Shown one piece after another: positions 6,029-62,757 of a stretch of 64,000 nucleotides of DNA. The notes beneath the pieces are model-generated. The model was not told the origin of the DNA. It saw only the letters and a program-made list of their open reading frames with translations, and made no database searches. The stretch comes from Escherichia coli (GTDB lineage Bacteria; Pseudomonadota; Gammaproteobacteria; Enterobacterales; Enterobacteriaceae). Numbering within the stretch: position 1 is the first letter of the stretch; the number at the start of each line of letters is the position of its first letter. The translations under genes and the position numbers were made by a program. The DNA is taken from NCBI RefSeq assembly GCF_013315695.1, contig NZ_CP054353.1. The stretch is one strand, 5' to 3'.

Positions 6029-6037
6029 AACGATGTC
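6029..6037. repeat. IS1 copy 1 target-site duplication, left (AACGATGTC)
   Basis: Identical 9-mer directly flanks the other end of the element at 6806-6814. Confidence 0.9.
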
Positions 6038-6092
6038 GGTGATGCTGCCAACTTACTGATTTAGTGTATGATGGTGTTTTTGAGGTGCTCCA

Positions 6093-6368
6093 GTGGCTTC
6101 TGTTTCTATCAGCTGTCCCTCCTGTTCAGCTACTGACGGGGTGGTGCGTAACGGCAAAAGCACCGCCGGACATCAGCGCTATCTCTGCTCTCACTGCCGT
6201 AAAACATGGCAACTGCAGTTCACTTACACCGCTTCTCAACCCGGTACGCACCAGAAAATCATTGATATGGCCATGAATGGCGTTGGATGCCGGGCAACAG
6301 CCCGCATTATGGGCGTTGGCCTCAACACGATTTTACGTCACTTAAAAAACTCAGGCCGCAGTCGGTAA
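6093..6368 (+). CDS. insA: IS1 InsA (transposition inhibitor / N-terminal part of InsAB' transposase), 91 aa
   Basis: ORF translation [37 protein letters not shown]... matches IS1 InsA as I recall it. Confidence 0.95.
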
Positions 6369-6790
6369 CCTCGCGCATACAGCCGGGCAGTGACGTCATC
6401 GTCTGCGCGGAAATGGACGAACAGTGGGGCTATGTCGGGGCTAAATCGCGCCAGCGCTGGCTGTTTTACGCGTATGACAGGCTCCGGAAGACGGTTGTTG
6501 CGCACGTATTCGGTGAACGCACTATGGCGACGCTGGGGCGTCTTATGAGCCTGCTGTCACCCTTTGACGTGGTGATATGGATGACGGATGGCTGGCCGCT
6601 GTATGAATCCCGCCTGAAGGGAAAGCTGCACGTAATCAGCAAGCGATATACGCAGCGAATTGAGCGGCATAACCTGAATCTGAGGCAGCACCTGGCACGG
6701 CTGGGACGGAAGTCGCTGTCGTTCTCAAAATCGGTGGAGCTGCATGACAAAGTCATCGGGCATTATCTGAACATAAAACACTATCAATAA
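6287..6790 (+). CDS. insB: IS1 InsB reading frame (joined to InsA by -1 frameshift to make the transposase), 167 aa
   Basis: ORF translation [21 protein letters not shown]... matches IS1 InsB. A6C slippery motif at 6344-6350 lies in the insA/insB overlap. Confidence 0.93.
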
Positions 6791-6805
6791 GTTGGAGTCA
6801 TTACC

Positions 6806-6814
6806 AACGATGTC
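6806..6814. repeat. IS1 copy 1 target-site duplication, right (AACGATGTC)
   Basis: Matches 6029-6037 exactly. Confidence 0.9.
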
Positions 6815-6960
6815 AAGTAGATAAAAAAGGATAGATTTTGAATTCATTTGGCTTATCAGTCCGAATTCAGACAAATATAAACAAATCCCGCTTAATATTA
6901 AAATATACTAACTGGTAAAAGATATTACTTAAACGTGTAATTTCACTTTCTTTAAACAAC

Positions 6961-7030
6961 AAAAAACCGCCAAAATCAGGCGGTTATTTGTTGCTGGTTT
7001 GGTTCGCGGCCTTTCCAGCAGGTTCACTTG
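6961..7030. repeat. Intergenic repeat module, copy B (includes a terminator-like hairpin at 6961-6992)
   Basis: AAAAAACCGCCaaaatcaGGCGGTTATTTGTTGCTGGTTTGGTTCGCGGCCTTTCCAGCAGGTT is near-identical to 5917-5980. Confidence 0.75.
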
Positions 7031-7285
7031 TGTTGCATGAACAACGCAGGTGCCTCACAGCAAAAGAATACTCGCTGTTAAGAAATTTTGTGTCAAGTAA
7101 AAAACGAGTAATTATTTTTCGGTTAGCGTATTATTGACACCGACCCTTTCCGCCGTCTCGCAAACGGGCGCTGGCTTTAGGAAAGGATGTTCCTTGGCCG
7201 TAAATGCAAGTGTATCTCGTCGCTTGCTATCGCGGCAATATCGCCAGTGGTGCTGTCGTGATGCGGTCTTCGCATGGACCGCACA

Positions 7286-7411
7286 ATGAAGATACGGTGC
7301 TTTTGTATCGTACTTATTGTTTCTGGTGCGCTGTTAACCGAGGTAAATAATAACCGGAGTCTCTCCGGTAACAATTTATTGGTGGTTAACAACCTTCAGA
7401 ACAGCAGGTAA
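7286..7411 (+). CDS. Hydrophobic small ORF inside ryfA, 41 aa (45 aa from ATG at 7274): MKIRCFCIVLIVSGALLTEVNNNRSLSGNNLLVVNNLQNSR; candidate TimP-like small membrane toxin
   Basis: Open frame translated by hand. One predicted transmembrane helix. Lies within the terminated transcript. Weak ribosome-binding site. Below the 60-aa cutoff of the ORF track. Confidence 0.4.
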   Translation: MKIRCFCIVLIVSGALLTEVNNNRSLSGNNLLVVNNLQNSR

Positions 7412-7417
7412 GCCCGA

Positions 7418-7444
7418 ATGCCGCCCTTTGGGGCGGCATATTTT
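7418..7444 (+). terminator. Intrinsic terminator of the ryfA-like transcript
   Basis: ATGCCGCCC(tttg)GGGCGGCAT followed by ATTTT; overlaps the sseB stop codon on the other strand. Confidence 0.75.
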
Positions 7445-9678: not shown

Positions 9679-9879
9679 TTACTCGGCCTCGTCAAGCCAG
9701 ACTAACAAAATCGCTTCGAGGATTTTCTCGTTGGATGCCTGCGGGTCGTCGTCGAAATCTTCCAGATCGCAAATCCACTGATGCATATCGGTGAATCGAA
9801 CCGTTTTCGGATCAAGATCGGGATACGCATCGTACAGTGCTTCGCCAATTTCGCGGCTATCGGTCCACTTAAGTCCCAT
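9679..9879 (-). CDS. iscX: Fe-S assembly accessory protein IscX, 66 aa
   Basis: [27 protein letters not shown]...; position after fdx. Confidence 0.93.
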
Positions 9880-9890
9880 ACTAACCTCTG

Positions 9891-10226
9891 TTAATGCTCA
9901 CGCGCATGGTTGATAGTGTAACGCGGGATTTCGACCACTAAATCTTCGTCGGTAACGCGCGCCTGGCAGCTTAAACGGCTTTCCGGCTCCAGTCCCCAGG
10001 CTTTGTCCAGCATGTCGTCTTCCTGCTCTGAGCTTTCCGGCAGCGAGTCAAAACCTTCGCGAACGATGCAGTGGCAGGTGGTGCAAGCACAGGATTTTTC
10101 ACAGGCGTGTTCAATCTCGATACCGTTACGCAGAGCTGCGTCGAGAATGGTTTCACCGCTATTAGCTTCCAGAACAGCGCCATCAGGACAGAGATCCTGA
10201 TGAGGCAAAATAACAATCTTTGGCAT
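9891..10226 (-). CDS. fdx: [2Fe-2S] ferredoxin of the isc operon, 111 aa
   Basis: Cysteine cluster [11 protein letters not shown]; synteny. Confidence 0.95.
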
Positions 10227-10227
10227 A

Positions 10228-12078
10228 TTAAACCTCGTCCACGGAATGGCCTTTCAGCGCACGACGAACCGACTGGTCCATGCGGCGAGCGGCGAAATCC
10301 TGGGTTTGTTTGTCTACGTTTTTAATCGCTTGTTCGATGGCGTCAACATCATCGCCCTGCGCCACTTCACTCAGGTGAGCGGCAGCATTGTCAATGACCT
10401 GACGCTCTGCGGCGCTTAACAGCGCGGCATCAGCAGCCAGCGCGCCGTGCAGACTTTCCAGCACACGCGCCGCTTCTACTTTTTGTTCTGCCAGCATACG
10501 GGCTTTTACGTCCTGCTCGGCATAGCTCATTGAGTCTTTAATCATCGAGGCGATTTCGCTGTCGGTCAGGCCGTAAGACGGTTTGACCTGGATAGACGCC
10601 TCAACGCCGGTGGATTTCTCCATCGCCGTCACGCTCAAAAGACCGTCGGCATCGACCTGGAACGTCACGCGAATATGCGCGCCGCCAGCCGGTAGCGCCG
10701 GAATACCTCGCAGCGCAAAACGCGCCAGCGAGCGGCAGTCCTGCACCAGTTCGCGCTCACCCTGCATTACATGGATAGACATCGCCGTCTGACCATCTTT
10801 AAAGGTGGTGAAATCCTGGGCGCGGGCCACCGGAATCGTGGTATTACGCGGGATCACTTTCTCCACCAGGCCGCCCATCGTTTCGAGGCCCAGCGACAGC
10901 GGGATCACATCCAGCAACAGCATTTCGCTGTCCGGCTTGTTACCCACCAGAATATCCGCCTGAATCGCCGCGCCAATAGCGACGACTTTATCCGGGTCGA
11001 TAGAAGTCAGCGGTGGACGACCGAAAAATTCGCCTACTCGTTCACGCACCAGCGGCACGCGAGTAGAACCGCCAACCATCACCACTTCCAGCACTTCATC
11101 AGCTTCTACGCCAGCGTCTTTCAGCGCACGACGACAAGCCAGTAAGGTTCGTTTTACCAGTGGCGCGATCAGTTCATTGAATTGTTCACGGCTGATTTCG
11201 CCCTGCCAGCCCGCAACGTTAACGGTCACGGAGTCCGCATCGCTCAGCGCGATTTTGGCCGCAATGGCAGCATCCAGCAGTTCACGCTGAACGCGGTTAT
11301 CGCTACGATCAGGAATGCCCGCCTGCTCGCGAATGTAATCCGCCAGCAGATGGTCGAAATCATCGCCGCCGAGCGCGGAATCACCGCCGGTTGCCAGCAC
11401 TTCAAACACGCCGCGACTTAAGCGCAGAATGGAAATATCAAACGTACCGCCGCCGAGGTCATAAACAGCGATCACGCCTTCCTGACCGGAATCCAGCCCG
11501 TAGGCAATAGCCGCAGCGGTCGGTTCGTTAAGTAAGCGCAGAACATGCAACCCCGCCAGACGCGCCGCGTCTTTGGTGCCCTGACGCTGGGCATCGTCAA
11601 AGTACGCCGGAACGGTGATAACGACACCATCCAGCTCGCCTGTCAGGGCTTCAGTTGCCCGCGCCGCCAGTGCTTTGAGGATGTCCGCAGAAACGCGCAC
11701 TGGGTTCAGCAGTCCCGCCGCCGTTTCAATCATCGGCAGGCCGTTTTCGCTGGCCTGGAATTGATAAGGCAGATGCGGATAGCGTTGCTGGATATCAGCC
11801 AGCGAGCGCCCCATCAGACGTTTAACAGAACTAATGGTGTTGGCGGTATCGAGCGCTGCATTAGTACGCGCGTCATAACCCACCGAATGCCCTTGCTGTT
11901 GATAGTGAACAACAGATGGCAGCAGGTGACGGCCTTCATGGTCGGCTAACGTTTCGGCCTGACCGCTGCGCACTGTCGCCACCAGCGAGTTGGTTGTGCC
12001 CAGGTCAATACCGGCCGCCAGACGACGCTGATGCGGCGCAGCACTCAAACCAGGTTCACTAATTTGTAATAAGGCCAT
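10228..12078 (-). CDS. hscA: Fe-S cluster chaperone HscA (Hsp70 family), 616 aa
   Basis: ATG at 12078 gives [10 protein letters not shown]...; IDLGTTNS motif. Track ORF extends 18 codons further upstream. Confidence 0.95.
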
Positions 12079-12094
12079 GTTTAGCTTCCAGAAA

Positions 12095-12610
12095 TTAAAA
12101 ATCGAGCAGTTTTTCTTCGAGTTGTTCGGCACTGCTCCGCAGTTTATCGAGAAAACGCAGCTTACGCACGGTATCCGCCGCCGCGTCCCACGTCTCGTTG
12201 TCTAACTGTTCAACCATCAACTGATGGCGGGTATCAAACATCTTTTTCACACGTTTGATAAAGCTTTCCAGCCGCGCTTCATCTTTCGCCTGTTCGATCT
12301 CGTCCAGCTCTTCGCGCAGCTCCAACTGTTCCATCAGGAACGCGGTGTCGCGCACAGTATGCTGCTCGCTGGCGAGATCAAAGCCGTGCAAAGAAAGCAA
12401 ATATTCCGCGCGCATTAACGGATGACGCAGCGTTTGCCAGGCCTGGTTAATGGTTGCAGATTGCTGTACGGCGGCGAGTTGTTCCGCCTGGCTTCCGCTG
12501 GCGAATTTATCAGGATGATACTGACGTTGTAGATCCTGAAAACGCAGGCTCAGTGCCTGGGTATCGAGTTGATAACGGGCAGGCAAGCCAAAGAGGGTGA
12601 AGTAATCCAT
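12095..12610 (-). CDS. hscB: Fe-S co-chaperone HscB (J-domain), 171 aa
   Basis: HPD motif; [16 protein letters not shown]... Confidence 0.95.
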
Positions 12611-12705
12611 AACATTCTCAGGGCTGCGATCCGCCGCGATAACGGCGAATCAGGTAAAACAAACCCCACGCGCAGGCGACCACGGTGGGGTTATCGGTAT
12701 GCGCA

Positions 12706-13029
12706 TCAAACGTGGAAGCTTTCGCCGCAACCACACTCATCTTTAACGTTCGGGTTGGTGAATTTAAACCCTTCGTTCAGGCCTTCTTTTACGAAGTCCA
12801 GCTGCGTACCGTCCAGAAATTGCAGGCTTTTGCCATCGACCACGACTTTCACGCCTTTGTCTTCAAACACGATGTCTTCCGGCGTCGGTTCGTCAACAAA
12901 TTCCAGTACATAAGCCATACCTGAACATCCGGAGGTTCTCACGCCCAGACGCAGGCCAAACCCTTTGCCGCGGTTAGCCAGAAAGGTATTTACTCGCGCT
13001 GCTGCACTGTCGCTCAGTGTAATCGACAT
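12706..13029 (-). CDS. iscA: Fe-S carrier IscA, 107 aa
   Basis: [13 protein letters not shown]... and C-terminal CGCGESF. Confidence 0.95.
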
Positions 13030-13045
13030 AACCAAACCTCAACTC

Positions 13046-13432
13046 TTATTTTGCTTCACGTTTGCTTTTATAGTCCGCAATGGCGGCTTTGATCGCGTCT
13101 TCTGCCAGAATAGAACAGTGAATTTTCACCGGCGGCAGTTCAAGTTCTTCAGCAATATCGGTGTTTTTGATCGCCTGCGCTTCGTCGAGAGACTTCCCTT
13201 TCACCCATTCGGTGACCAGGGAGCTGGAAGCGATAGCAGAACCGCAGCCGTAAGTTTTAAAACGCGCGTCTTCAATGATACCTTCATCGTTGACTTTAAT
13301 CTGCAACTTCATCACGTCGCCACAGGCCGGTGCACCCACCATGCCGCTGCCGACGTTCTCGTCGTTGTTGTCAAAGGAACCCACGTTACGCGGATTCTCG
13401 TAATGGTCGATAACTTTTTCGCTGTAAGCCAT
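13046..13432 (-). CDS. iscU: Fe-S scaffold IscU, 128 aa
   Basis: MAYSEKVIDHYENPRNVG... and conserved cysteines. Confidence 0.96.
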   Translation of the reverse strand: MAYSEKVIDHYENPRNVGSFDNNDENVGSGMVGAPACGDVMKLQIKVNDEGIIEDARFKTYGCGSAIASSSLVTEWVKGKSLDEAQAIKNTDIAEELELPPVKIHCSILAEDAIKAAIADYKSKREAK

Positions 13433-13459
13433 TATAAATTCTCCTGATTCCGATACCGA

Positions 13460-14674
13460 TTAATGATGAGCCCATTCGATGCTGTTCAGATCCACGCCCT
13501 GCTTGTACATTTCCCACAGCGGAGAAAGGTCACGCAGACGACCGATGGATTTACGAACTAACTCGATGGTGTAGTCGATCTCTTCTTCAGTAGTAAAACG
13601 ACCTAAAGAGAAACGGATAGAGCTATGTGCCAGCTCGTCGTTCAGCCCCAGCGCGCGCAGCACGTAGGACGGTTCGAGGCTTGCTGACGTACAGGCGGAA
13701 CCGGAAGAAACCGCGAGGTCTTTCAGCGCCATAATCAGCGACTCACCTTCAACGTAGTTGAAGCTGACGTTGAGAATGTTCGGCGCACCGTGTTCCAGGT
13801 CACCGTTCAGGTAAACTTCTTCGATATCTTTGATGCCGTTCCACAGACGGTTACGCAGGCCGCGCAGACGTTCCATCTCGGTCGCCATCTCTTCTTTTGC
13901 TATGCGATAGGCTTCGCCCATACCGACGATCTGGTGAACAGGCAGAGTACCGGAACGCATACCGCGCTCGTGACCGCCGCCGTGCATTTGCGCTTCGATA
14001 CGTACGCGCGGTTTACGACGCACATACAGCGCACCAATACCTTTCGGGCCATAGATTTTGTGACCGGAGAAAGACATCAGGTCAACTTTCAACTGGCTCA
14101 GGTCGATAGGCAGTTTGCCCACGCTCTGGGTTGCATCAACGTGATAGATAATGCCGCGAGCACGGCACATTTCGCCGATAGCCGCGATATCCTGCACCAC
14201 GCCGATTTCGTTATTTACGTGCATGATGGAAACAAGGATGGTGTCGTCACGCATCGCTGCTTCGAGTTCTTTCAGGTCGATAATACCGTTACGCTGCGGT
14301 GCCAGGTAAGTGACTTCAAAACCTTCGCGCTCCAGCTGACGGCAGGTATCCAGTACCGCTTTGTGTTCGGTTTTGCTGGTGATGATGTGCTTGCCTTTTT
14401 TCTGATAAAAGTTAGCAGCACCTTTGATCGCCAGGTTGTCAGATTCGGTAGCACCAGAGGTAAAGACGATTTCACGCGGATCAGCGCCAACCAGATCGGC
14501 AATCTGATTACGAGCGATATCTACCGCTTCTTCAGCCTGCCAGCCGAAACGGTGAGAACGGGAGGCCGGGTTACCAAAGGTTCCGTCCATCGTCATAAAC
14601 TGCATCATTTTCTCGGCAACACGCGGGTCCACCGGCGTGGTTGCGGAGTAGTCGAGATAAATCGGTAATTTCAT
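13460..14674 (-). CDS. iscS: Cysteine desulfurase IscS, 404 aa
   Basis: ATG at 14674 gives [14 protein letters not shown]...; PLP-lysine motif [10 protein letters not shown]. Confidence 0.96.
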
Positions 14675-14785
14675 TGCTCTATAAACTCCGTACATCACTC
14701 AATGCAAGGAACCAGGCTGCCGGCTGGATGTACGACCGTGTTTACGGAGTGTTTAGCACTCCGGCCTGATTCTGAATTCTTTTTA

Positions 14786-15274
14786 TTAAGCGCGTAACTT
14801 AACGTCGATCGCGTCTTGTGTGCGGGTGCGTGGCGCGTCGTGAGTATGCTGACGACCAGACACATCCAGCACTTCCTGGTTATTAACCAGTTCGCCTAAA
14901 GTAATGTTATTGAGAAAACCGGTAAGACGGTCGCTCAAATCACGCCACAGCGCGTGGGTCAGGCATTTATCGCCGCCCTGGCAGCCGCCTTTACCCTGAC
15001 AACGGGTGGCATCTACAGATTCGTCAACGGCGCTAATCACTTCGCCAACGGCGATGCTGCTGGCATCTTTGCCTAACAGATAACCACCGCCTGGTCCACG
15101 TACGCTGGAAACCAGACCATTTTTACGCAGACGGGAAAACAGTTGTTCCAGATAAGAAAGGGAAATTCCCTGACGTTCGGAAATATCAGCCAACGGTACC
15201 GGGCCCGCTTCAGAGTTGAGCGCAACGTCAAGCATTGCGGTCACGGCATAGCGCCCTTTAGATGTCAGTCTCAT
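14786..15274 (-). CDS. iscR: Fe-S responsive transcriptional regulator IscR (Rrf2 family), 162 aa
   Basis: [19 protein letters not shown]...; cysteine ligands near C-terminus. Confidence 0.96.
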
Positions 15275-15343
15275 GTCTTACTTCACCTCAAACTCGCCCC
15301 TGCCCGGGGTTTTTTATTGTAAAAGTGGGGGTATTGCATAGCA

Positions 15344-15408
15344 GGGTCAAGTCTGACATTCCCGAGTAAATTGGTCAACTATTTACTTGACTGATTTAGT
15401 CGGGTATT
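15344..15408 (-). promoter_or_regulatory. iscR promoter region with IscR autoregulatory operator sites
   Basis: Minus-strand sequence ATAGTTGACCAATTTACTCGGGAATGTCAGACTTGACCC matches the isc promoter/operator as I recall it; lies directly upstream of iscR. Confidence 0.6.
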
Positions 15409-15451
15409 TAACCTTCAGTGCCATTTTTTTATCGTGGCGTTTGTACCTGTT

Positions 15452-15536
15452 GTCGGATGCGGTGTGAACACCTTATCCGACCTGGGATTCCGTGCACTTA
15501 CAAGCCTGATAAGACGCGTTAAGCATCGCATCAGGC
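15452..15536. repeat. Two REP elements (BIME) between iscR and trmJ
   Basis: GTCGGATGCGGTGTGAACACCTTATCCGACC and GCCTGATAAGACGCGTTAAGCATCGCATCAGGC. Confidence 0.7.
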
Positions 15537-15544
15537 AACCACTG

Positions 15545-16285
15545 TTATTCGGCCTTATTACCTTTATTCTGCTGCTCTATAGAAGCCAGAATCCCGCGCA
15601 GGATATTCAATTCCTGGCTTTCCGGGCGTGCACGGGTAAACAGACGGCGCAATTTATTCATCACCTGCCCCGGATGGTTTTCACGGATAAAACCGGTTGC
15701 CAGCAGCGTTTGTTCGAGATGACCGTAAAAACGCTCCAGATCATCGACCAGCGGATACGGCGTCTCTTCATGCTCGACCTGCTCGCCATTTTCCTGAGTT
15801 GCCAGCCAGGCCATGCGCACTTCATAGGCAATAACCTGAACCGCCATCGCCAGGTTCAGCGAACTGTATTCCGGGTTAGCCGCAATCGCGACATGATAAT
15901 GGCATTTCTGCAGCTCTTCATTGGTCAAGCCGACGCGCTCGCGACCAAACACCAGCGCCACCGGGGTATTTGCCGCTTCAGCGACGCTTTTCAGACCGCA
16001 TTCGCGCGGGTCGAGCATCGGCCACGGCAGCGTGCGGGAGCGAGCGCTGGTGCCCACCACCAGGCTACAACCGGCTAACGCTTCGTCGAGCGTATCGACG
16101 ATGTGAGCATTACCAATCACATCGCTGGCCCCTGCTGCCAGGGCAATCGCCTGGGAGTCAGGTTTCACCAGTGGATTAACCAGCCACAGATTGGTTAATC
16201 CCATTGTTTTCATGGCACGGGCAACAGAACCCATATTGCCGGTGTGTGACGTCTCCACCAGCACAATTCGAATATTTTGCAGCAT
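15545..16285 (-). CDS. trmJ: tRNA (cytidine/uridine-2'-O)-methyltransferase TrmJ, 246 aa
   Basis: SpoU-type [22 protein letters not shown]...; synteny. Confidence 0.93.
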
Positions 16286-26286: not shown

Positions 26287-26295
26287 TATCTTGCA
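26287..26295. repeat. IS1 copy 2 target-site duplication (TATCTTGCA)
   Basis: Identical 9-mer at 27064-27072 directly flanking the other end. Confidence 0.9.
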
Positions 26296-26310
26296 GGTAA
26301 TGACTCCAAC

Positions 26311-26814
26311 TTATTGATAGTGTTTTATGTTCAGATAATGCCCGATGACTTTGTCATGCAGCTCCACCGATTTTGAGAACGACAGCGACTTCCGTCCCAG
26401 CCGTGCCAGGTGCTGCCTCAGATTCAGGTTATGCCGCTCAATTCGCTGCGTATATCGCTTGCTGATTACGTGCAGCTTTCCCTTCAGGCGGGATTCATAC
26501 AGCGGCCAGCCATCCGTCATCCATATCACCACGTCAAAGGGTGACAGCAGGCTCATAAGACGCCCCAGCGTCGCCATAGTGCGTTCACCGAATACGTGCG
26601 CAACAACCGTCTTCCGGAGCCTGTCATACGCGTAAAACAGCCAGCGCTGGCGCGATTTAGCCCCGACATAGCCCCACTGTTCGTCCATTTCCGCGCAGAC
26701 GATGACGTCACTGCCCGGCTGTATGCGCGAGGTTACCGACTGCGGCCTGAGTTTTTTAAGTGACGTAAAATCGTGTTGAGGCCAACGCCCATAATGCGGG
26801 CTGTTGCCCGGCAT
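26311..26814 (-). CDS. insB: IS1 InsB reading frame, 167 aa
   Basis: Identical protein to the 6287..6790 ORF. Confidence 0.93.
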
Positions 26815-27008
26815 CCAACGCCATTCATGGCCATATCAATGATTTTCTGGTGCGTACCGGGTTGAGAAGCGGTGTAAGTGAACTGCAGTTGCCATGTTTT
26901 ACGGCAGTGAGAGCAGAGATAGCGCTGATGTCCGGCGGTGCTTTTGCCGTTACGCACCACCCCGTCAGTAGCTGAACAGGAGGGACAGCTGATAGAAACA
27001 GAAGCCAC
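26733..27008 (-). CDS. insA: IS1 InsA, 91 aa
   Basis: Identical protein to the 6093..6368 ORF. Confidence 0.95.
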
Positions 27009-27063
27009 TGGAGCACCTCAAAAACACCATCATACACTAAATCAGTAAGTTGGCAGCATCACC

Positions 27064-27072
27064 TATCTTGCA
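27064..27072. repeat. IS1 copy 2 target-site duplication (TATCTTGCA)
   Basis: Matches 26287-26295. Confidence 0.9.
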
Positions 27073-45137: not shown

Positions 45138-45323
45138 ACAACAAAGCCGGGAATTACCCGGCTTTGTTATGGAATAAGGCGGTGCCTAACTCGACGTTTC
45201 GCCCGAGGGTTGATATAGCTACGCTGATATCAGAAGTTGGACGGCAGGCACCTTGTTGTGCGTCATTCGAATTTTATGTAGCACGTCCCGAAGGGGCTGA
45301 CATAAGTCGGTGAATGAGCCACT
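45138..45323 (-). ncRNA. glmY: GlmY small RNA
   Basis: Minus-strand sequence AGTGGCTCATTCACCGACTTATGTCAGCC...AAAGCCGGGTAATTCCCGGCTTTGTTGT matches GlmY as I recall it; terminator hairpin at the 3' end; lies directly upstream of glrK. Confidence 0.85.
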
Positions 45324-54520: not shown

Positions 54521-54595
54521 TGTTGGAATCGTGTGCTGCACAAAATTAAAGTTGTAAAGTGAACCCCCCCGTTCCTTACCAGTTCGGGGGTTTTA
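54521..54595 (+). ncRNA. ohsC: OhsC antitoxin small RNA (boundaries approximate)
   Basis: Promoter TTGTAC-N18-CATAAT; the 19-nt element TTGGAATCGTGTGCTGCAC at 54523-54541 is a direct repeat of 54274-54292 in the shoB leader, giving antisense pairing; intrinsic terminator at 54564-54594. Confidence 0.7.
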
Positions 54596-54619
54596 CTTTA
54601 TAAAGAGAACGGTATTTTT

Positions 54620-56482: not shown

Positions 56483-58095
<1,613 letters not shown>

Positions 58096-58293
58096 TCAGC
58101 ACACGAAACAGACCTGATATACATGGCTCTGCTAACTGCTTCGCTGCAGTTTCAGTTTACCGGTATATGGGGACCAACGCTGTTTCGTGTGCCGTGGCAA
58201 CCTGGAGGTGCCAACCTTAAACTTCGGGGGAATATTCTATACACAACGACGGGGGATGTCGTTAGCCACGGGAGATTTATCTCATAAATAATT

Positions 58294-59327: not shown

Positions 59328-61127
<1,800 letters not shown>

Positions 61128-61324
61128 AAAGTATGATTATTGTGCCTTAATGCCCGGTTAACCAGGCTTTTAGAAGTCGCTGTTCTGAGCTTAACGTCTG
61201 TATTAATAGAAACGCCGCATTCTACACTACAACATTGAGGCGAGGAAATGTTCATACCGTATGGATTGTGGTATCTGGAAACGTCCTCGCATTTGTTATG
61301 CAAAATGCAACAAAGCCAGTGAAA

Positions 61325-61804
61325 TCACTGGCTCGCGTCTTCCGAAGATGTTTCAAATCGCACAAGGCCAGGCGGCAAGGCCACGCTTAAGATGATCGGT
61401 TGCCATTCTGCCCGGGCAGCAAACTTACGCGAGTAGCCACGTGCAATCAGGAATCCACCAACGCCACCGAGAATCGCACCGCATAATGCTGCAATATCTG
61501 AAGCAAAGAGTAGCTGAAATAGTGAAGCGATGAGGAATAGTCCCACCAACGGCGACATATAAACCAGTAATGCGGAGCTAAGCAGGCTGCCTTCGGCGAT
61601 TCCTAATTCTACTTTTTGCCCCGGCACTAACGGTTCATCACAGGGTACGACAATGGTATGCGTAGTTTGCGGGCCAAGTTTATTCAACACGCGGCTACCG
61701 CAACCGGCGCGTGAAGCGCAGCTGCTGCATGAGGCTTTAACATCACAACTAACCAGCGCCTGCCCGTTTTCCCAGGAGACGACGGTAGCCCACTCTTTGA
61801 TCAT
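61325..61804 (-). CDS. rseC: SoxR-reducing system / sigma-E regulatory protein RseC, 159 aa
   Basis: Synteny downstream of rseB; 4-bp overlap. Confidence 0.92.
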   Translation of the reverse strand: MIKEWATVVSWENGQALVSCDVKASCSSCASRAGCGSRVLNKLGPQTTHTIVVPCDEPLVPGQKVELGIAEGSLLSSALLVYMSPLVGLFLIASLFQLLFASDIAALCGAILGGVGGFLIARGYSRKFAARAEWQPIILSVALPPGLVRFETSSEDASQ

Positions 61805-62757
61805 TGCGCTGCCCCGAACTTAATATTCTCGGCAATGCGTTTCGCCGTTTGCGGCGGCAGTTCACCGACAATGGTGATTTCGGCGTTATCACGTACGCTT
61901 GTACTGACGGTTCTGCGTCCGGTGCGCAACATCTGATCGGTGCTCGATGGCGTAGCGCGGTTAACGTTTACCGAAAAGCTGAATAATCCGTCGGAATAGA
62001 GACGTGATTCGATAGGCATGTTGTCCATCGTCGGTAGCGGACGTCGACTACTGGAAACTTCGCTAAAACCCTGTGGCAACCAGGTTGGCGTCCAGCTGAA
62101 TTTAGCTTTTTCACCTACAGGAACAGAAAGCAACGGCGGCAAATTTGCCTTCGCCAGCGTCTGCATACTGCTGCTGATATCCTGATTGACATTAAAAGCA
62201 ATCACGCGAAATTGTTCCAGCGTTTCACCATCGCGATCAAGGAGATCAACCCTCATCGGTAATTTCGATTCGGTGTCCATCCACACGATGTAGCTGTAGC
62301 GTGTACCATCTCGGGCAACCACGCGAATAACTTCGCAAAGACGATCAGCAATACGCGTGCGCCCGACGGAGATAAAGTCGTAGTAAGGAGAAAGGCGTTT
62401 GAAATCGGTATAGATGAGCGATGGCAGAGAATCAACAATGTAATCGCCATTAAGCGTGAACGGTTCAAGTCCCGGTTCAAAATAGCTGATCTCATTGCCG
62501 CGCTGTACCACTTCCCGGCGCGGGCCATCCATTTGCAACAATTGTGCAAGAGGACGGTTATCGAGGCGTGCATGTCGATAACGCAGAGACTCAACACCCT
62601 GTTTATTGATGCTGATGAATGACAGCTCGTAATTCAGTGACTGACTGGCCAGGTTCATCTGCTGTAATAACGCCCCGGACGCGGGAGTGGCCGAGGCGTT
62701 AGCAGAGAATAACAGGCTACCTGTCACTAATGACATGGCAAACCAAAGTTGCTTCAT
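61801..62757 (-). CDS. rseB: Sigma-E regulatory periplasmic protein RseB, 318 aa
   Basis: Signal peptide MKQLWFAMSLVTGSLLFSANASA. Confidence 0.95.
   Translation of the reverse strand: MKQLWFAMSLVTGSLLFSANASATPASGALLQQMNLASQSLNYELSFISINKQGVESLRYRHARLDNRPLAQLLQMDGPRREVVQRGNEISYFEPGLEPFTLNGDYIVDSLPSLIYTDFKRLSPYYDFISVGRTRIADRLCEVIRVVARDGTRYSYIVWMDTESKLPMRVDLLDRDGETLEQFRVIAFNVNQDISSSMQTLAKANLPPLLSVPVGEKAKFSWTPTWLPQGFSEVSSSRRPLPTMDNMPIESRLYSDGLFSFSVNVNRATPSSTDQMLRTGRRTVSTSVRDNAEITIVGELPPQTAKRIAENIKFGAAQ

Follow-up and report, generated by a model that had tools for sequence, protein, structure and literature searches.

PiscR, the isc promoter of Escherichia coli K-12, reportedly carries the type-1 IscR sites A and B, in work attributed to Schwartz 2001, Giel 2006 and 2013, and the Kiley laboratory. 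Type-1 sites are bound only by cluster-bearing IscR, which represses transcription, and isc is derepressed once the cluster is lost or oxidized (PMC12594620; PMC8561392; PMC4169559). Their consensus, 5′-ATASYYGACTRWWWYAGTCRRSTAT-3′, is given in PMC6599224 with Giel et al. 2006 and 2013 as its source, and the same paper describes the site A/B/C nomenclature and the overlap with the −35 and −10 elements. In the isc promoter of Pseudomonas aeruginosa, sites are located at −42 to −18 and −67 to −43, with site B between −35 and −10 (PMC6599224).

The corresponding promoter was analyzed in the window, the whole stretch of 64,000 nucleotides of E. coli DNA under study. Interval 15344–15408 is, at a probability of about 0.95, the canonical sigma-70 promoter of the iscRSUA-hscBA-fdx-iscX operon with two abutting 25-bp type-1 IscR sites. 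By its sequence, the feature appears to be one already known, the standard K-12 isc autoregulatory promoter, and no result contradicted its reading as the canonical iscR promoter-operator. K-12 MG1655 and the E. coli genome MSB1_4I match the window at 100% over the ~190 bp that precede the iscR ATG, which bears out the earlier note's statement that the promoter and operator are intact. Besides this stretch, the window has the regulator protein, operon, and iscRS element in common with K-12 PiscR, and the two diverge only in the far-upstream spacer, which holds one REP/BIME unit in the window and three in K-12. The window genome also has IS1 copies 8.5 and 10.9 kb from the operator.

A motif scan, proposed in the earlier note, was run with the published type-1 consensus on both strands of the whole 64-kb window, allowing up to 3 mismatches. 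Exactly two matches to ATASYYGACTRWWWYAGTCRRSTAT were found in the window, at 15383–15407 (1 mismatch) and 15358–15382 (3 mismatches). They adjoin at 15382/15383 in tandem, and this is the only locus of the window with matches. Site A is ATACCCGACTAAATCAGTCAAGTAA (15383–15407, minus strand), which abuts site B at offset −25. Site B, or iscRB, is ATAGTTGACCAATTTACTCGGGAAT (15358–15382, minus strand). None was expected by chance, and 100 dinucleotide-preserving shuffles yielded 0 matches at up to 3 mismatches. In a mismatch census of every 25-mer of the window, the next-best had 6 mismatches and is a terminator-like hairpin at 6963–6987. The earlier note quoted the 39-mer ATAGTTGACCAATTTACTCGGGAATGTCAGACTTGACCC, read directly from the minus strand (15382 to 15344). 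It begins 108 nt 5′ of iscR and comprises only site B and the −10 region, whereas the full operator consists of two abutting 25-bp sites; the interval also covers the upstream neighbor (minus strand, 15407 to 15383). The minus-strand context of the operator in the window is ...AAATACCCGACTAAATCAGTCAAGTAAATAGTTGACCAATTTACTCGGGAATGTCAGACTTGACCCTGC.... The tandem sites lie directly 5′ of iscR and overlap the core promoter, with the start of site B 108 nt from the ATG. A literature search by sequence returned no match to the exact site sequences.

A 30-mer iscRB oligonucleotide, AAATAGTTGACCATTTTACTCGGGAATGTC, comes from the Kiley laboratory and was designed for [2Fe-2S]-IscR binding assays (PMC12594620). 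It matches the window at 29 of 30 positions, and the operator thereby agrees with experimentally characterized K-12 sequence both here and across MG1655 (100%). The single mismatch, AATTT in the window versus ATTTT in PMC12594620, falls in the central W positions, where natural genomes at the cross-species loci have AATTT or AAATT. The published oligonucleotide (PMC12594620, section 4.6) reads ...GACCATTTTACT..., versus ...GACCAATTTACT... in the K-12 genome and the window. Either the paper contains a misprint, or the oligonucleotide was deliberately made with a single-base change in the central W tract.

A −35-like hexamer, TTGACC (15373–15378, minus strand), was read from the sequence inside site B, 17 nt from the −10-like hexamer CAGACT (15350–15355, minus strand). 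Its assignment as the putative −35 element follows from this spacing and from the layout described for P. aeruginosa (PMC6599224). The candidate −10 hexamer matches TATAAT at 3 of 6 positions, and site B ends within 2 nt of it. Each CAGACT position is at least 80% identical among 36 unique Enterobacterales upstream sequences, and the hexamer and its neighbors are nearly invariant there, though outside the search pattern. A generic promoter scan of 15200–15600 called no promoter; this miss is attributed to the weak −10, which falls below the threshold, and is not evidence against a promoter. We take transcription to start at approximately 15342 (minus strand), presuming the K-12 start to lie ~68 nt 5′ of the ATG. 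A start near 15342 places site B at −40 to −16 and site A at −65 to −41. The footprints of Giel et al. 2006 are said to cover −65 to −41 and −40 to −16, matching sites A and B given this start. The iscR 5′ leader (15275–15341, minus strand) is identical to K-12 and contains a short G+C hairpin (15296–15310) and a GAGG ribosome-binding site.

The iscR coding sequence is a 162-codon ORF (14786–15274, minus strand). Its product is 100% identical to K-12 IscR (162/162 amino acids) and matches solved structures 4hf1 and 4chu. Alignment to K-12 IscR places all the cluster ligands, Cys92, Cys98, Cys104, and His107, in this cognate regulator encoded downstream of the operator. The iscR-iscS spacer holds the iscRS stability element (14676–14785, minus strand; Rfam RF01517, full length 1–110, 131 bits versus a gathering score of 40), which is RyhB-responsive and intact. 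The genes iscS-iscU-iscA-hscB-hscA-fdx-iscX follow in the operon under the iscR promoter (9679–14674, minus strand; coordinates transferred from the MSB1_4I annotation). Upstream of the operator is trmJ, a 246-codon ORF ending at 15545; the iscR and trmJ ORFs were identified by comparison with annotated E. coli genomes. The isc system is conditionally dispensable in E. coli, where SUF backs it up and only joint loss of both systems is lethal. To call isc an essential locus, as the earlier note did, is too strong, since loss of isc genes is known to be tolerated.

The trmJ-iscR spacer is 270 bp in the window versus 451 bp in K-12. A REP pair, or BIME-like unit, lies between trmJ and the operator (15452–15536, minus strand) as one unit, where K-12 has three in tandem. 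One unit is also present in MSB1_4I. A 361-bp query across this spacer was at least 80% covered in only 3,989/5,425 genomes, which indicates that REP-unit copy number differs widely among strains. Just 5′ of site A, a GCACnGAA motif (15408–15425, minus strand GGCACTGAAGGTTAA) is kept across Enterobacteriaceae genera, while the surrounding spacer is not. This motif may be what is left of a third IscR half-site, or another factor may bind there.

Conservation within E. coli was assessed with an 81-bp query over both sites (15335–15415). The query was found in 5,424 of 5,426 complete E. coli genomes, once in each, always on the chromosome and never on a plasmid. At least 5,347 of the 5,424 carry the core at ≥99% identity, a threshold that only a perfect match can pass at 81 nt. 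For the cross-species scan, one genome per species was searched with the pattern ATAGTTGACCWAWTTACTCGG. This yielded 48 loci, in Escherichia albertii, Salmonella, Klebsiella, Raoultella, Enterobacter, Buttiauxella, Pantoea, Pseudomonas, and others, 44 of which have an ORF starting MRLT[ST]KGRYAVT 63–108 nt past the match. The best second type-1-like site falls precisely at −25 in all Enterobacterales and Pseudomonas loci examined. Among 36 unique Enterobacterales sequences, site A is 73% conserved, the −15 to +1 stretch 76%, and the flanks 41–46%; site B conservation is circular in this set, as site B is the search pattern.

The P. aeruginosa promoter (PMC6599224) likewise has two abutting 25-bp type-1 sites with site A directly 5′ of site B, and its site B, ATAGTTGACCTAATTACTCGGATAA, is nearly the same sequence as that of E. 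coli. Its site A is more degenerate, and no site C was detected in P. aeruginosa. The leader from site B to the ATG is 65–69 nt in two Pseudomonadaceae loci versus 108 nt in the window. Loci of the Erwiniaceae (13 from Pantoea and Mixta) have three perfect-tandem 25-bp type-1-like sites 5′ of iscR, not two, for example ATAGTTGAGTAAATTACCAGGTTAA, ATACCTGACTAATTTACCAGGTTAA, and ATAGTTGACCAAATTACTCGGGAAT. In E. coli, the third position retains just a degenerate remnant (...GGTTAA). Matches to the site-B pattern were also obtained in a metagenome-assembled genome (MAG) labeled Chloroherpeton thalassium and in two Thiobacillus MAGs, all non-gammaproteobacterial bins. No MRLT- or MKLT-type ORF start was found within 400 nt downstream of the pattern in these three loci. 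They may stem from mis-binning, from use of another start codon, or from a target gene other than iscR.

As the earlier note described, the operator 5′ of iscR (sites 15358–15407) lies within a block bracketed by IS1. The left copy (6038–6805, plus strand) has the 9-bp target duplication AACGATGTC at 6029–6037 and 6806–6814. The right copy is inverted (26296–27063, minus strand) and has the 9-bp duplication TATCTTGCA at 26287–26295 and 27064–27072. Both copies end in GGTGATGCTGCCAACTTA and GGTAATGACTCCAACTTA; the arms are 768 nt each, 100% reverse-complementary, and separated by 19,490 nt. The MSB1_4I annotation lists its identical copy of the left IS1 as a transposase of the IS1A family with a programmed frameshift. 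Length, terminal inverted repeats, the insA/insB frameshift transposase, and the 9-bp duplications together identify the elements as IS1. The window differs from MSB1_4I by six substitutions and one indel in 63 kb, and over 1–26295 by a single base at position 405. MSB1_4I contains the left IS1 and lacks the right one. No complete E. coli genome matches the right IS1 junction at 100%, which marks the right IS1 as a recent, private insertion. The two IS1 copies are independent simple insertions that, at 8.5 and 10.9 kb, do not touch the operator.

The right IS1 lies ~20 nt 5′ of the yphA start codon and probably separates yphA from its own promoter. In the unrelated E. coli isolate CE12-1 (flanks ~96% identical), a different IS1 variant with its own duplication, AGGGATTGG, is inserted in the same orientation only 10 bp away. 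With two insertions so close together, the hcaD-yphA spacer seems to be a local hot spot for IS1. The left IS1 stops 20 bp short of an Rfam "IS128 RNA" match (6825–7003, plus strand) and ~335 bp upstream of ryfA/timP (7140–7444), in a spacer that diverges from K-12 around the timR end. Other regional RNA elements, GlmY (45176–45323), OhsC next to shoB (54522–54599), the rnc leader rncO (58011–58225), and AsrC, antisense of rseC (61009–61840), are all present at full length with nothing unusual.

Replication direction, a second check proposed in the earlier note, was read from K-12 and MSB1_4I coordinates and from GC skew. K-12 iscR is at 2,661,643–2,662,131 on the complement strand, and an oriC search placed the origin at ~3.9257 Mb on a K-12-type map. 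This puts the locus 1.26 Mb from the origin in the counter-clockwise direction, where forks run toward lower coordinates and complement-strand genes are co-directional. MSB1_4I leads to the same conclusion, with dnaA first on the plus strand and isc, on that strand too, 1.41 Mb into its 5.28 Mb; its replichore was assigned from this dnaA-first layout. Plus-strand GC skew in the window takes negative values in 14 of the 16 4-kb bins, within the block and beyond it, a pattern that fits a leading minus strand; skew reflects long-term history and would miss a large rearrangement of the region as a whole that happened very recently. As it stands, the isc operon is transcribed in the direction in which the fork moves.

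It is very improbable that the segment between the IS1 copies is already inverted, or inverted in part of the population, with isc head-on to replication. Inverted 768-bp repeats at 100% identity are good RecA substrates, and IS-mediated inversions are known to be common in IS-rich E. coli and Shigella. An inversion would have swapped the inner halves of the target duplications, but both duplications are intact, from which it follows that no inversion has occurred since insertion; this reading is based on the consensus sequence, and minority subpopulations lie outside its reach. The order sseA-IS1-sseB...hcaD-IS1-yphA is also that of K-12, and GC skew has the same sign inside the block and outside. 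A synthetic 1,200-nt query for the predicted junction was built by joining the outer flank on the sseA side to the inner flank on the hcaD side, the latter in reverse complement. Both halves were found in one place in 0/5,425 genomes, none of which thus has an sseA/IS1/inverted-hcaD junction. The IS1 pair has not rearranged the isc locus, and inversion is purely hypothetical.

Less probable again is that the IS1 pair and the intervening 19.5 kb make up a composite transposon that brought the isc block here or can move it. As in Tn9 and Tn1681 and in IS-mediated inversions, two identical 768-bp IS1 copies, inverted in the window, flank a chromosomal segment, and IS1 pairs of either orientation are known to mobilize the DNA between them. 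Unlike Tn9/Tn1681, each copy here has its own 9-bp duplication and the outer flanks differ (AACGATGTC versus TATCTTGCA), so the unit was not inserted as a whole; the two are independent insertions with no sign of unit transposition or inversion. The near-identical MSB1_4I has the left IS1 only. Gene order in the window, yfhM-sseA-IS1-timP/sseB-pepB-isc-trmJ-suhB-yfhR-csiE-hca-IS1-yphA..., is collinear with K-12 2.647–2.685 Mb. Within E. coli, the iscR region was confined to chromosomes. The few hits labeled "plasmid" come from records of megabase scale or classed as non-mobilizable, and such records with iscRS are probably mislabeled chromosomes or chromids. Neither one shared target duplication nor a non-native location was found, and a composite-transposon origin was rejected on the separate duplications, the native K-12 context, and the plasmid search. 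That the consensus matches arose by chance or are relics, and play no part in regulation in this strain, is a negligible prospect, given the empty shuffles, the 6 mismatches of the next-best site in 64 kb, identity in ~98.6% of E. coli genomes, an architecture kept across genera, and a sequence that is the one studied experimentally in K-12.

For the canonical iscR promoter-operator, a standard negative feedback loop is most likely how the promoter would work. Binding, repression, and the transcription start in the window are carried over, as predictions, from published work on the identical K-12 sequence. With ample Fe-S cluster supply, IscR would carry a [2Fe-2S] cluster, the only form expected to bind type-1 sites. 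Holo-IscR on sites A and B, over the −35 region, would then block RNA polymerase and repress the operon that encodes it. If demand for clusters outran their supply, or if the cluster were oxidized, apo- or oxidized IscR would leave the sites and the operon would be derepressed, closing the loop.

The operator result is a clean negative of little consequence: the locus is unchanged from K-12 and nearly invariant in E. coli. The sole strain-specific element is the recent second IS1 insertion, which created an inverted-repeat pair and a possible substrate for a small inversion. Homologous recombination between the copies would invert the segment and not delete it, since they are inverted to each other. 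The earlier note held that such an inversion would move isc and reverse its orientation; the reversal stands, as isc would turn head-on, while the move would be only ~2.4 kb and the junction is absent from all 5,425 genomes. The promoter would shift from 15342 to ~17759 with all cis elements travelling with the operon, and suhB, yfhR, csiE, and hcaEFCBD would become co-directional. The private right IS1 may have made the 19.5-kb segment, containing the whole isc operon, trmJ, suhB, and the hca cluster, a RecA-invertible cassette, and cultures might hold a subpopulation with head-on isc and an intact promoter and operator, an idea we regard as unlikely. If true, such a subpopulation would show in a natural setting how orientation affects a highly expressed housekeeping operon.
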